4,110 nucleotides of DNA from the IMG/VR virus record IMGVR_UViG_2541047932_000006, positions 1 through 4,110 of that record. One strand, 5' to 3'. This DNA is from a virus (taxonomy: Duplodnaviria > Heunggongvirae > Uroviricota > Caudoviricetes). The position numbers and the translations under genes are program-made. Positions within the stretch are counted from its first letter, which is position 1. Every line of letters starts with the position of its first letter. Shown piece by piece: positions 1 through 4,110 of this stretch. The notes under the pieces were generated by a model that made no database searches, was not told the DNA's origin, and saw only the letters and a program-made list of their open reading frames with translations.

Positions 1-648
1 TTTGAGCCGCAGTCAGGCACCCTGAACAGCGTTATTCCACCGGCAGTGCAGCACCTGACGGTGGAGGTGAGCGCGGCTGACGGTCAGTATCTGGCACAGG
101 CGAAATGGGACACGCCGAGGGTGGTGAAGGGCGTGCGCTTCAGTCTGCGCCTGACCAGTGGAAGCGGTGAGAACAGCCGCCTGCTGACCACCGCCATCAC
201 TGCCGATACGGAGCACCGTTTCAGTGGCCTGCCTCTCGGGGAATACACCCTGACGGTCAGGGCGATTAACAGCTATGGCCAGCAGGGCGAACCCGCCACC
301 ACCACCTTCCGGATTAACGCACCGGCAGCGCCTGCCGGTGTTGAACTGACGCCGGGGTATTTTCAGATAACGGCAGTCCCGAAACTGACATTTATGACCC
401 GACGGTGCAGTTTGAGTTCTGGTTTTCGGAGGCAAAAATTGCAGACGCCGCACAGGTGGAAACCTCTGCCCGTTATCTGGGGACCGGCAGTCAGTGGAGT
501 GTATCCGGCCCGCACATTAAGCCCGGGAAGGATTTCTGGTTTTACGTGCGCAGCGTCAACCTGGTGGGGAAATCTGCGTTTGTGGAAGTCAGCGGGCAGC
601 CCAGCAATGATGCAGAAGGGTATCTGGGGCTGTTTCGGGAAAAAATAG
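1..648 (+). CDS. J: Tail-tip host-specificity protein J, internal portion (5'-truncated by the window edge). Frame 1 is open from nt 1 to the stop at 646-648, but J-like sequence in this frame ends at about 390; the remainder to 648 is out-of-frame read-through.
   Basis: Frame 1 has no stop from nt 1. Its translation ([39 protein letters not shown]...[16 protein letters not shown]) matches my recollection of the lambda J region upstream of the C-terminal receptor-binding part. The J-like sequence then continues in frame 3 ([13 protein letters not shown]...), so the frame-1 tail is probably not real protein. Confidence 0.6.
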
Positions 649-1661
649 GAAAACTGCATCTGGCTCAGGGGCTGTGGGAGCTGATAGACAACAGCCAGCT
701 TGCGGATGAGATGGCGGAGATGAAGACCACCATCACCGAAACCCGCAATGAAATCACACAGACGGTCAGTAAAACGCTGGAGGACCAGAGCGCCACCATA
801 CAGCAGATACAGCGCGTGCAGAAGGACACAAATGATGACCTTGCTGCACTTTACATGCTGAAGGTACAGAAAACAAAAAATGGCATACCCTATGTTGCCG
901 GTATTGGAGCGGGGATTGAGGATACTGATGGCCAGCCCCTGAGCAACATACTGCTGCTGGCTGACCGTATTGCGATGATTAACCCGGAGGACGGCAACAC
1001 CACGCCGTTATTTGTGGCGCAGGGGAATCAGCTGTTCATGAACGATGTGTTCCTGAAGCGGCTGTTTGCGGTGAGTATCACCTCGTCCGGCAATCCCCCG
1101 ACGTTTTCCCTGACGCCGGAGGGCAGGCTGACCGCAAGAAATGCTGATATCAGCGGTAACGTGAATGCGAATTCCGGGACGCTCAACAACGTCACGATTA
1201 ACGAGAACTGTCGGGTTCTGGGAAAACTGTCCGCGAACCAGATTGAAGGCGATCTCGTTAAAACAGTGGGCAAAGCTTTCCCCCGGGATTCCCGTGCACC
1301 GGAGCGGTGGCCATCAGGGACCATTACCGTCAGGGTTTATGACGATCAGCCGTTTGACCGGCAAATTGTTATTCCGGCGGTGGCATTCAGCGGCGCTAAA
1401 CATGAGAGAGAGCATACTGATATTTACTCCTCATGCCGTCTGATAGTGCGGAAAAACGGTGCTGAAATTTATAACCGTACCGCGCTGGATAATACGCTGA
1501 TTTACAGTGGCGTTATTGATATGCCTGCCGGTCATGGTCACATGACGCTGGAGTTTTCGGTGTCAGCATGGCTGGTAAATAACTGGTATCCCACAGCAAG
1601 TATCAGCGATCTGCTGGTTGTGGTGATGAAAAAATCCACAGCAGGTATCAGTATCAGCTGA
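405..1661 (+). CDS. J: Tail-tip host-specificity protein J, C-terminal portion. Frame 3 is open from 345; J-like translation starts at about 393 ([13 protein letters not shown]...), and 405 is only the first in-frame ATG.
   Basis: The 418-aa ORF from the track contains motifs I recall from the lambda J C-terminal region ([63 protein letters not shown], ...KK...GIS at the end). It lies directly upstream of lom, as in lambda. Stop TGA at 1659-1661. Confidence 0.85.
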
Positions 1662-1677
1662 ATTTTATAACCCAGAA

Positions 1678-1706
1678 CGGGCGTCAGAAATGACGCCTTT
1701 TTTATT
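1678..1706 (+). terminator. Rho-independent terminator downstream of J
   Basis: GC-rich hairpin GGCGTCA(1680-1686) / loop GAAA / TGACGCC(1691-1697), followed directly by TTTTTTATT (1698-1706). Confidence 0.7.
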
Positions 1707-1727
1707 GCAGAAAAGCGAGAGGTAATT

Positions 1728-2327
1728 ATGCGTAAACTTTATGCAGCCATTTTGTCCGCAGCCATTTGTCTGACCGTATCCGGTGCGCCTGCATGGGCGT
1801 CTGAGCAGCAGGCCACGCTGAGCGCGGGGTATCTTCATGCCCGGACGAACGCTCCCGGTAGCGATAATCTTAACGGGATTAACGTGAAATACCGTTATGA
1901 GTTTACGGACACACTGGGGATGGTGACGTCGTTCAGCTATGCAGGAGACAGGAATCGCCAGCTGACCCATTACAGCGATACCCGCTGGCATGAAGATTCC
2001 GTTCGTAACCGCTGGTTCAGCGTAATGGCGGGGCCGTCTGTGCGCGTGAATGAATGGTTCAGCGCGTATGCGATGGCGGGTGTGGCTTACAGCCGTGTGT
2101 CGACTTTCTCCGGGGATTATCTCCGCGTAACTGACAACAAGGGGAAAACGCACGACGTGCTGACCGGAAGTGATGACGGTCGCCACAGCGACACCTCTCT
2201 GGCGTGGGGAGCTGGCGTGCAGTTTAACCCGACCGAATCCGTGGCCATTGATATTGCTTATGAAGGCTCCGGCAGTGGCGACTGGCGCACTGACGGTTTC
2301 ATCGTGGGTGTCGGTTATAAATTCTGA
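1728..2327 (+). CDS. lom: Lom outer-membrane beta-barrel protein (Ail/Lom/OmpX family), a lysogenic-conversion 'moron'
   Basis: 199-aa ORF. RBS GAGAGG at 1717-1722, 5 nt before the ATG. N-terminal signal peptide MRKLYAAILSAAICLTVSGAPAWA|SE. C-terminal aromatic beta-signal ...VGVGYKF. The protein is near-identical to lambda Lom as I recall it. Position between J and stf matches lambda. Confidence 0.92.
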   Translation: MRKLYAAILSAAICLTVSGAPAWASEQQATLSAGYLHARTNAPGSDNLNGINVKYRYEFTDTLGMVTSFSYAGDRNRQLTHYSDTRWHEDSVRNRWFSVMAGPSVRVNEWFSAYAMAGVAYSRVSTFSGDYLRVTDNKGKTHDVLTGSDDGRHSDTSLAWGAGVQFNPTESVAIDIAYEGSGSGDWRTDGFIVGVGYKF

Positions 2328-2353
2328 TTAGCCAGGTAACACAGTGTTATGAC

Positions 2354-2381
2354 AGTCCGCCGGTTCAGGCGGGCTTTTTTG
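2354..2381 (+). terminator. Rho-independent terminator downstream of lom
   Basis: Imperfect hairpin AGTCCGCC(2354-2361) / loop GGTTCA / GGCGGGCT(2368-2375) with one mismatch, then a run of six T (2375-2380). Confidence 0.65.
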
Positions 2382-2391
2382 TGAGGTGAAT

Positions 2392-3705
2392 ATGGCAGTA
2401 AAGATTTCAGGTGTACTGAAAGACGGCACAGGAAAACCGGTACAGAACTGCACAATCCAGCTGAAAGCAAAACGTAACAGTACCACGGTGGTGGTGAACA
2501 CGGTGGCCTCTGAAAATCCGGATGAAGCCGGTCGTTACAGCATGGACGTTGAGTACGGTCAGTACAGCGTCATTCTGTTGGTGGAGGGCTTCCCGCCGTC
2601 ACATGCCGGGACCATCACCGTGTATGAAGATTCTCAACCGGGGACGCTGAATGATTTTCTCGGTGCCATGTCGGAGGATGACGTCCGTCCGGAGGCACTG
2701 CGTCGTTTTGAACTGATGGTGGAAGAAGCAGCGCGTCACGCAGAGGAGGCGAAGAAGAATGCCGGAGAAGCAGAGACGTCCGCGAGGAATGCCGGCATAT
2801 CAGCCAGTAAGGCGGAAGCGAGCGCGGCAAATGCTGACACTTCAGCAGGGGATGCATCGGAGTCAGCCCGGCAGGCGGCAGAAAGTGCAGCCGCTGCAAA
2901 GCAGTCAGAGGAGGCGTCCTCGTCCTCGGCCTCTGCGGCCGCTCAAAAAGCCAGTGAGTCATCACAAAGTGCAGCAGAAGCTGAATTGTCAAGAAAGACG
3001 GCAGAAAGTGCAGCCGGTAATGCAGCCAGGGATGCAACGACCGCAGCAGAAAAAGCCCGGGAGTCAGCAGAAAGCGCACAGTCAGCGGAACAAAGCAGGA
3101 TAGCGGCGGAAGAAGCCGTAAACCGAATCCCCACCGTGGTGGGACCTCCCGGGCCAAAGGGGGAACAGGGGCCCGCGGGTCCTCAGGGGCCGAAGGGTGA
3201 TAAGGGAGAGCGCGGAGACACCGGCCCTGTCGGGGCAACCGGCGAACGGGGACCGGCAGGTGATGCTGGTCCGGCAGGCCCGCAGGGGCCGAAAGGTGAC
3301 AGGGGAGAGCGGGGAGAGACCGGTCTGACAGGAAGTACAGGTCCACAGGGTCCAAAGGGAGACACCGGGGCAGCAGGCCCGGCAGGCCCACAGGGACCGA
3401 AAGGAGAAACAGGTGTGGCTGGCCCGGTAGGGGCAACCGGACCTCAGGGACCAAAGGGCGCCCCGGGGGAGACGCAAATACGGTTCCGTCTGGGGCCGGG
3501 AAACATTATTGAGACAAACAGCAATGGCTGGTTCCCGGATACAGATGGCGCACTCATCACCGGACTGACCTTTCTTGACCCCAAAGATGCCACACGGGTT
3601 CAGGGTTTTTTTCAGCATTTGCAGGTCAGGTTTGGTGACGGGCCGTGGCAGGATGTTAAGGGGCTGGATGAAGTGGGCAGTGATACAGGCAGAACAGGAG
3701 AATGA
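2392..3705 (+). CDS. stf: Side tail fibre protein (Stf-like): lambda-type N-terminal domain, Ala/Ser/Glu-rich shaft, collagen-like triple-helix repeat region, short C-terminal tip
   Basis: ATG at 2392 preceded by GAGG (2383-2386); the track's GTG at 2386 is an in-frame alternative. The N-terminus [37 protein letters not shown]...[47 protein letters not shown] matches my recollection of the lambda Stf (orf-401) N-terminus. Residues ~251-361 are 37 consecutive G-X-Y triplets. Stop TGA at 3703-3705. Confidence 0.88.
2722..3129 (+). repeat. Low-complexity Ala/Ser/Glu-rich repetitive shaft segment within stf, with internal DNA direct repeats
   Basis: Translation [133 protein letters not shown] perfect 18-bp direct repeat CGGCAGAAAGTGCAGCCG occurs at 2876-2893 and 2999-3016 (123 bp = 41 codons apart), with a related copy near 3065-3080. 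Confidence 0.7.
3142..3474 (+). repeat. Collagen-like G-X-Y repeat region: 37 uninterrupted triplets, 333 nt, inside stf
   Basis: Translation [111 protein letters not shown] has Gly at every third residue without exception. GPQGPKG recurs five times. Larger units [11 protein letters not shown](K/R)GERG(D/E)TG recur at 3169-3225 and 3268-3324. Confidence 0.9.
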
Positions 3706-3706
3706 C

Positions 3707-3976
3707 ATGAACATACTAAAAAAACTTATGCAGCGTCTGTGCGGTTGCGGAAAGCATGATGGCCGAGAACACGGGCAGTCGCTTACAGTACAACTGCGAC
3801 TGGGGCCGGCAGACATCCTGGAGTCAGATGAGAATGGTATTATCCCGGAGCAGGACAGGGTAATCACGCAGGTGGTGATACTGGATGCGGATAAAAAGCA
3901 GATACAGTGTGTGGTAAGACCGCTGCAAATCCTGCGTGCTGACGGGAGGTGGGAAAATATTGGCGGAATGAAATAG
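3707..3976 (+). CDS. Small hypothetical protein (89 aa) whose C-terminal ~60 residues are paralogous to the Stf C-terminal tip domain; function unknown (candidate fibre-tip accessory protein, chaperone or alternative tip)
   Basis: ATG at 3707 lies 1 nt after the stf stop (TGAcATG). RBS AGGAG at 3695-3699, 7 nt upstream. Translation MNILKKLMQRLCGCGKHDGREHGQSLTVQLRLGPADILESDENGIIPEQDRVITQVVILDADKKQIQCVVRPLQILRADGRWENIGGMK. It is followed by a strong terminator. The track's longer ORF from 3575 is an out-of-frame overlap with the stf 3' end and is unlikely to be real. Confidence 0.7.
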   Translation: MNILKKLMQRLCGCGKHDGREHGQSLTVQLRLGPADILESDENGIIPEQDRVITQVVILDADKKQIQCVVRPLQILRADGRWENIGGMK

Positions 3977-3990
3977 CCGACAGCTTCACA

Positions 3991-4017
3991 AAACCGGAGT
4001 CCGGCTCCGGTTTTTTG
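3991..4017 (+). terminator. Rho-independent terminator ending the stf / small-ORF transcription unit
   Basis: Perfect 6-bp GC-rich stem CCGGAG(3994-3999) / loop TCCGG / CTCCGG(4005-4010), followed by TTTTTTG (4011-4017). Confidence 0.8.
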
Positions 4018-4030
4018 TTGGTTAGATGTA

Positions 4031-4070
4031 ATCTGACAGATACCTGTATAAATAACCGGTAACTGTCAGG
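4031..4070. promoter_or_regulatory. Imperfect inverted repeat (candidate protein-binding site or operator) in an AT-rich intergenic stretch
   Basis: tCTGACAGaTACC (4032-4044) and GGTAaCTGTCAGg (4058-4070) are reverse complements with two mismatches, flanking an AT-rich centre TGTATAAATAACC. Function not determinable from sequence. Confidence 0.3.
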
Positions 4071-4110
4071 TCAGAGCTAATACAGGTAATTATATTATAA
4101 TCACGAGCGC

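Follow-up and report, generated by a model that had tools for sequence, protein, structure and literature searches.

A conserved free-standing paralogue of the collagen-like fibre knob, encoded directly after stf in lambdoid and Stx phages

The 4,110 nucleotides that form positions 1 to 4,110 of the IMG/VR virus record IMGVR_UViG_2541047932_000006, referred to here as the window, carry directly after the side tail fibre gene (stf) a small open reading frame (ORF) whose 89-residue product is an old and diverged paralogue of the fibre's own C-terminal knob, in free-standing form. The small ORF is a real, translated and conserved late gene of lambdoid and Shiga toxin (Stx) phages, and it is already known and catalogued, with the NCBI name 'phage tail fiber C-terminal domain-containing protein'. 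We tentatively interpret its product as a co-expressed, non-essential accessory knob protein that is associated with the fibre or the virion, and put the probability of this interpretation at roughly 0.4. Our additions to the existing descriptions are the selection acting on the gene, its invariant start signals, the age of the duplication, and the peptides of an orthologue in a virion proteome.

The window is the distal tail region of a lambdoid prophage of the kind found in enterohaemorrhagic and enteropathogenic Escherichia coli (EHEC and EPEC), long-tailed and with the gene order J-lom-stf. The features that concern the small ORF are as follows.

2392..3705, plus strand: stf, side tail fibre gene, an EPclA-type collagen-like prophage fibre of 437 residues (ORF list, Pfam)
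3478..3669, plus strand: PfC knob of the fibre (residues 363-426), paralogue of the small ORF (PF06820, 120 bits; BLASTP E 1e-11)
3696..3700, plus strand: Shine-Dalgarno sequence AGGAG of the small ORF, within the last stf codons and 6 nt upstream of the ATG (sequence)
3703..3705, plus strand: stf stop codon TGA, 1 nt upstream of the small-ORF ATG (sequence)
3707..3976, plus strand: small ORF, free-standing PfC protein, 89 codons plus stop, ATG start (ORF list, PF06820, PHROG 576)
3707..3787, plus strand: N-terminal 27 codons of the small ORF, absent from the fibre; basic amphipathic helix (residues 2-12) and charged linker
3788..3973, plus strand: PfC knob of the small protein, residues 28-89 (PF06820, 125 bits)
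3987..4022 (about), plus strand: intrinsic terminator-like hairpin and T tract, closing the stf-ORF unit

The small ORF is a copy of the fibre knob

The fibre consists of an N-terminal fibre domain, a coiled coil, collagen repeats and a C-terminal knob, with Pfam matches to PF08400 (residues 1-133), Collagen (PF01391) and PF06820 (residues 363-426). Its length and architecture are exactly those of EPclA, with PfN, a coiled coil, 111 residues of collagen and PfC, 437 residues in all (PMC3368898, Ghosh et al. 2012). A preliminary description of this DNA, made by eye, had proposed that the 89-residue protein is a diverged copy of the fibre tip, and the similarity proves to be well beyond chance: in BLASTP, ORF residues 28-88 align with fibre residues 363-425 (22 of 63 identical, 35%; 62% positives; E = 1e-11 as a single comparison), and PF06820 (Phage_fiber_C, gathering score 25) matches both proteins over the whole model, the small ORF at 125.1 bits (E 1.4e-36, residues 28-89, model positions 1-64 of 64) and the fibre at 120 bits (E 4.9e-35, residues 363-426). 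The small ORF also aligns over its full length with PHROG 576 (E 1.7e-59, positions 1-89 of 89), the small 'tail fiber protein' family found in Stx and lambdoid phages. The earlier impression that the protein belongs to no named family, and is novel, is thus overturned by these two assignments. The same description pointed to similarity at the DNA level in the first block of the alignment; this is true but minor, as the two knob-coding stretches are only about 51% identical and their longest common run is the 10 nt CTGGGGCCGG.

The knob of the small ORF and the PfC of EPclA are thus members of one family (PMC3368898), with the fold-defining residues in common (G-P, N-G, P, T, L-Q and D-G-x-W). 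The small protein differs from the fibre PfC in being free-standing, in having an N-terminal helix of its own and no acidic C-terminal tail, and in falling into a separate and more conserved clade at about 33% identity; trimerisation has been demonstrated only for the fibre copy. No Pfam family besides PF06820 is found in the small ORF at E <= 1, so that it shows no membership of the Tfa family, and a search of NCBIfam returned no match. The observation that the ORF stands in the place of lambda tfa is confirmed in the window, where no tfa-like gene lies 3' of stf and the terminator is followed by a type III effector locus.

The N-terminal helix has a hydrophobic moment of 0.67 and a net charge of +3, and the motif M-x-I-x-K-K...L is kept in the Salmonella orthologues described below, where neither the charged linker nor the Cys pair is conserved. 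The CxC pair to which the preliminary description drew attention is therefore present in the window ORF but is not a conserved feature, Salmonella orthologues having LFGCDK or LSGGDK in its place. We accordingly rejected a metal-binding motif, and also a lipoprotein or signal-peptide reading of the N-terminus (LCGC), which by eye has no hydrophobic core and whose Cys is not conserved in Salmonella.

Start signals at the stf junction

We compared the junction in 82 sequences, comprising 81 loci and the window. The junction core GAATGACATGAA is the same in all 82, and the full CAGGAGAATGACATGAA is present in 80 of them; the spacing of 1 nt between the stf stop and the ATG is constant in the 68 loci with an intact upstream gene, an arrangement that fits translational coupling of the small ORF to stf. 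RNA around the junction is no more structured than shuffled sequence (folding z = +1.3), which fits an open initiation site.

Synonymous diversity (pS) is nearly nil in the last 11 stf codons (3673-3705), at 0.009 compared with about 0.12 in the rest of the tip, and low per-site diversity spans about 3670 to 3760. This may reflect constraint on the initiation region of the ORF, or recent gene conversion between prophage copies.

Selection and the age of the duplication

The small ORF is under purifying selection. Taken as a whole it has a pS of 0.117 and a non-synonymous diversity (pN) of 0.017, a pN/pS of 0.146; the knob is the more constrained part (pS 0.127, pN 0.013, pN/pS 0.10) and the N-terminal 27 codons the less (pS 0.091, pN 0.027, pN/pS 0.30), while the fibre's own knob is looser than that of the small ORF (pS 0.120, pN 0.027, pN/pS 0.23). 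These values, from 61 unique ORF and 41 unique fibre-tip sequences, are only indicative, since they rest on the top 80 matches, compared in pairs that lack independence, but they exclude a decaying copy.

Prophages of Salmonella enterica, including subsp. salamae, encode a 79-residue orthologue that is 62-63% identical and lies directly after a PfC-tipped fibre. It overlaps its fibre gene by 14-23 nt, is preceded by an AGGAGG site and has a terminator 3' of it. The shafts of the partner fibres differ: one, of 468 residues, has PfN, a Phage_fiber_2 repeat and PfC without collagen, and the other has 212 residues. In a neighbour-joining tree of the knob domains every free-standing copy falls in one clade, and between E. 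coli and Salmonella the free-standing knobs are 62-63% identical whereas the fibre tips of the same loci are 34-35% identical. The duplication is therefore older than the split between E. coli and Salmonella, and the small protein evolves more slowly than the fibre tip that accompanies it.

Previously described relatives

The small ORF is an orthologue of phi24B gp59 (ADN68460), the phage 434 product CPT_434B_24, AU6Stx1 atfT and Sp5 ORF68; these are the same gene, of 89 residues, directly after a collagen-like fibre and with the same junction and terminator. The phi24B ORF has 7 differences from that of the window (about 92% identical) and shares the GGAGAATGACATGAA junction and the terminator; Sp5-like phages match at 92%, Sp5 ORF68 itself being matched by its description in PMC5155283. 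The window copy differs in lying in a long-tailed prophage beside tccP/tccP2 and not in a short-tailed Stx phage, and otherwise in nothing substantive.

The phi24B record (2010) describes gp59 as 'phage fiber C superfamily; contains a RLGP motif similar to phage side tail fiber'. The J-lom-stf(437)-ORF(89) module is also present in phage 434, whose record labels the product 'tail fiber assembly chaperone'; the AU6Stx1 record, which names the gene atfT, predicts a +1 frameshift with a slippery sequence and a pseudoknot. Mondal et al. (2016) describe Sp5 ORF68 as a polypeptide of 89 residues corresponding to a fibre C-terminus and list it with the non-essential late genes; they found no frameshift signal for it, and proposed an 'intragenomic reservoir' (PMC5155283). 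The observation made in the preliminary description and one of its three hypotheses were therefore already in print. A literature search by locus tag found no functional study of the long-tailed prophage copies.

Distribution

Among 5,426 complete E. coli genomes the small ORF is present in 697, at 6,801 places with a median of 11 per genome, and the fibre tip likewise in 697, at 6,160 places. Among phage records, long-tailed phages and short-tailed Stx phages included, each is found in 296. In this survey the ORF and this type of tip occur together. By megablast, ORF places outnumber fibre-tip places in the complete genomes by about 640, which suggests either that some small ORFs are orphans in degraded prophages or that some tips have diverged beyond the reach of megablast. 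Hosts with the small ORF include E. coli, E. albertii, Citrobacter rodentium and S. enterica, subsp. salamae among the last.

Protein clusters at 92-98% identity to the small ORF have thousands of members in E. coli and E. albertii, while a profile search of 1.84 billion representative proteins gave 81 matches, nearly all of them Escherichia fragments or mis-called fusions. When the Salmonella fibre tip was the query of a word-indexed homology search, one protein came back. A scan of species-representative genomes found two loci, one in E. albertii and the other on a 725-bp 'Xanthomonas pisi' contig (L088, NZ_JPLE01000138.1), where the copy is 92% identical to the E. coli prophage ORF and is probably assembly contamination.

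An accessory knob protein

Three lines of published work bear on function. The fibre PfC (residues 363-426) trimerises alone in experiments, and Col-PfC refolds fast after heating, indicating that PfC nucleates the collagen helix; trimers of the recombinant fibre form in E. coli when the small protein is absent (PMC3368898). ORF67, the fibre gene of Sp5, is essential for plaques and lysogeny on K-12, and ORF68 is outside the nine essential genes (PMC5155283). Finally, in the part of the supplement examined here, the proteome of gradient-purified phi24B virions includes the peptides VITQVVILDADKK and ADGTWENIGGMK, which in that part map only to gp59 or to hypothetical gp61-gp59 fusions (bioRxiv 10.64898/2026.04.10.717836). 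Both are contained in the phi24B ORF sequence, and the protein is thus made and co-purifies with virions. In the low-molecular-weight band EA1829 of the same part the 'fusion' group is one spectrum above the fibre, which fits a free protein of about 10 kDa but is too thin to use.

The small ORF is transcribed with stf, has its own ribosome-binding site inside the last stf codons, and encodes one PfC knob preceded by a short amphipathic helix of basic character and a flexible linker. In the interpretation that we favor, the product would most likely form a small trimeric knob, as the fibre PfC trimerises by itself; it would accompany the fibre or virion as a dispensable accessory to the tip, where it might stabilise the tip or modulate adsorption on natural hosts.

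Several points weigh against this interpretation. The peptides are only two, and the phi24B authors also saw non-structural proteins as contaminants of that preparation; the main text of that preprint is silent on gp59, and the authors' own label is 'Spike or just gp59?' (bioRxiv 10.64898/2026.04.10.717836). The distal fibre domain is unresolved in the cryo-electron microscopy of phi24B (2026 preprint, bioRxiv 10.64898/2026.04.10.717836). Since Sp5 ORF68 is non-essential, any structural role is dispensable on K-12. Structure prediction, which the preliminary description had proposed as a check, gave AlphaFold2 monomer models of low confidence, with a predicted local distance difference test (pLDDT) score of 51 from a 7-sequence alignment and 58 from a 13-sequence alignment; a helix is placed at residues 3-11 with low confidence, the linker is disordered, and only the C-terminal beta strands reach about 70. 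A Foldseek search of the PDB with the model gave nothing below E = 2, and sequence and profile searches of the PDB with the small ORF gave chance matches only.

A more specific form of this interpretation, possible but doubtful, is that the protein represents a new kind of fibre partner, a knob paralogue that docks on or co-assembles with the tip through its basic N-terminal helix or through knob-knob contacts, stays bound to the virion, and tunes adsorption on natural hosts. The C-terminal tails of the fibres are acidic (net charge -1 to -3), and the opposite charges of tail and helix may hint at such a docking mode. If this is true, the protein would be an accessory of the tip with no relation to the Tfa or gp38 families, present across EHEC, EPEC and Salmonella prophages and phage 434. 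Collagen-like fibres of this type are carried by Stx phages and by effector-carrying EHEC and EPEC prophages, and the makeup of the fibre tip therefore bears on the spread of toxin and effector genes between strains. The small ORF is among the most highly repeated phage genes in these genomes, and it is clearly under selection; phage 434 is a convenient, non-pathogenic model for its possible role as a virion-bound partner of the fibre tip.

Alternative explanations

The second most probable explanation is that the protein is a non-structural helper acting in trans, a free knob that transiently templates or speeds the trimerisation and registration of the fibre knob as a stand-in for Tfa, improving yield without being required; the virion traces would then be co-purification. 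We regard this as unlikely. In its favor, the gene occupies the tfa position directly after stf in a translationally coupled arrangement, it is always found with PfC-tipped fibres (in 697 and 697 genomes, and 296 and 296 phage records), the collagen helix refolds from a nucleus provided by PfC (PMC3368898), and the phage 434 record uses the word chaperone. However, the recombinant fibre and the isolated PfC both trimerise in E. coli without it (PMC3368898), and in Sp5 the fibre is essential while ORF68 is not (PMC5155283). Together these published results speak against the obligate version, a trans-acting chaperone that replaces Tfa, which was one of the hypotheses of the preliminary description.

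Lambda Tfa, P2 gpG and Mu U (Caudo_TAP) resemble the small protein in their position directly 3' of the fibre gene and in their small size, but there is no sequence similarity; the small protein is instead homologous to the tip itself, and is non-essential where the fibre is essential. Some Tfa proteins remain bound to the fibre tip. Tfa proteins also co-vary with their tips, whereas the small protein stays at 62% identity while the tips fall to 35%. Intramolecular chaperone domains of the Peptidase_S74 type are alike in concept, being C-terminal modules that drive fibre trimerisation, but they are not homologous, and they act in cis and are cleaved off, while the small protein is a separate gene product.

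It is improbable that the protein is a soluble mimic of the tip, released at lysis to occupy receptors on debris or on neighbouring cells and so cut wasteful adsorption or superinfection. In favor of this, the protein is a free version of the distal domain of the fibre and is expressed late along with it, and non-essentiality in plaque and lysogeny assays fits an ecological role of this kind. Against it, the product of a late-operon gene with no signal peptide, as judged by eye, would have no access to the surface of the lysogen, and a mimic that tracks specificity is not expected to be about 33% identical to the tip and yet more conserved than it. Superinfection exclusion in particular, which the preliminary description had offered as an example of such a role, finds no support, as no PADLOC defence or exclusion profile matches the small ORF at E <= 1; it is the idea of a soluble tip-like protein with a role of its own that keeps the low probability given above.

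We consider it very unlikely that the ORF is reached by a programmed +1 frameshift, in which some ribosomes shift near the end of stf to give a longer fibre with a second knob. Besides the slippery sequence and pseudoknot predicted in the AU6Stx1 record, in E. coli as in Salmonella the small ORF is read in the +1 frame with respect to stf, 64 of the 82 sequences have this frame open over the 46 codons before the ORF, and the database searched by the phi24B authors included fusion sequences. There is also a run of seven T at 3606-3612 of the window, inside the fibre knob (codons GGT TTT TTT). The run is polymorphic, however, with at least six T in just 30 of 70 unique loci, in agreement with the F/L/M variation in the motif QG[FLM]FQ, so that a slippery site is not conserved, and a shift there would halve the fibre's own knob. 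In Salmonella the +1 frame is interrupted 1-5 codons before the ATG, and in 12 E. coli loci it is interrupted 13 codons before it; the junction RNA shows no stimulatory structure by the folding comparison above, Mondal et al. saw no frameshift signal (PMC5155283), and the examined part of the phi24B proteome has no junction or out-of-frame peptides. Expression is accounted for by the canonical ribosome-binding site and the ATG, with no need of a frameshift.

A silent reservoir, that is, an alternative tip that could be recombined into stf to change host range, was put forward both in the preliminary description and, for Sp5 ORF68, in print (PMC5155283); it has in our estimation very little chance of being correct. 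A second tip copy just 3' of the fibre gene recalls the invertible S-U segments of Mu and P1 and the template repeats of diversity-generating retroelements, but the small ORF has the same orientation as stf and its own start signals, no flanking inverted repeats were found around it, and no invertase or reverse transcriptase is among the annotated neighbours (lom, stf and effectors). The two copies moreover have the low DNA identity and short common run noted above, and the ribosome-binding site, the ATG, the conserved N-terminus and a pN/pS of 0.15 point to selection on the free protein. No long fibre with an ORF-type tip is among the matches listed in either protein search: none of the matches listed from 5.8 billion protein clusters is longer than 131 residues, and the sole long fibre among the 81 representative matches (P0127, 374 residues) has a fibre-type tip.

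Two rare chimeric database entries could be taken in favor of such exchange. P0060 (L082, 4-291) has the fibre collagen region in frame with an ORF-type knob, joined at a microhomology CCGGCAG, and P0121 has the small-ORF N-terminus joined to a fibre-type knob and tail; these could be real rearrangements or assembly artefacts. P0060 lies at a contig edge, and the P0060 junction is never in one piece among the best 10-15 matches per search in the 5,426 complete genomes, all of those listed being two-piece; we have therefore rejected it as evidence of a tip swap.

That the ORF is a decaying duplicate without function, as the non-essentiality of Sp5 ORF68 and the truncation or rearrangement of some copies might suggest, is effectively refuted by selection and proteome data, namely a pN/pS of 0.15 (0.146 over the whole ORF) at a pS of 0.12, invariant start signals, retention in Salmonella with conserved synteny and in short-tailed and long-tailed phages, and the detection of orthologue peptides.

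Neighbouring genes and minor observations

The genes upstream of stf in the window are the following.

to 1661: gene J, 3' end (Pfam Ig_GpJ_C, Phage_Tail_Tip)
1728-2327: lom (Pfam Ail_Lom, 393 bits)

The closest complete genomes are 97-98% identical to window positions 3400-4110, and are annotated there with a 'prophage tail fiber N-terminal domain-containing protein', a 'phage tail fiber C-terminal domain-containing protein' and the tccP/tccP2 type III effector. Hairpins equivalent to that closing the stf-ORF unit are found 3' of the small ORF in the phi24B and Salmonella loci as well. The small ORF and its terminator form the boundary to type III effector cargo, which includes tccP/tccP2, nleG and SopA/NleL-like genes, and nleB/nleC in phage 434; the boundary is seen at 3977-4110 of the window and in five further loci (L001, L082, L083, L089 and L093).

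A prophage remnant of C. rodentium (L084-L086, 5479-6237), lying among chromosomal genes, has a fibre of 161-166 residues in which PfN is fused directly to PfC, followed by a shortened small ORF of 78 residues, with nleG downstream in L084. P0142 (L091, 3505-5202; metagenome run SRR17035117) is a 565-residue protein with four tandem repeats like the C-terminal half of PfC (VVVLDAD...LQVRRADGTWxEIPxxKG), which precede collagen repeats, showing that PfC-like modules can be tandem and can occur outside enterobacteria.

A further terminator-like hairpin separates lom from stf at 2354-2375; were it functional, transcription of stf and the small ORF from the late promoter would depend on read-through or antitermination. 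On the minus strand, long ORFs of 279 and 261 residues (2615-3454 and 3082-3867) lie antisense to the collagen-repeat region of stf and most probably arise as a side effect of its G+C-rich GXY repeats; an antisense coding sequence of this kind, vb_24B_37c, is annotated within the fibre gene in the phi24B record.

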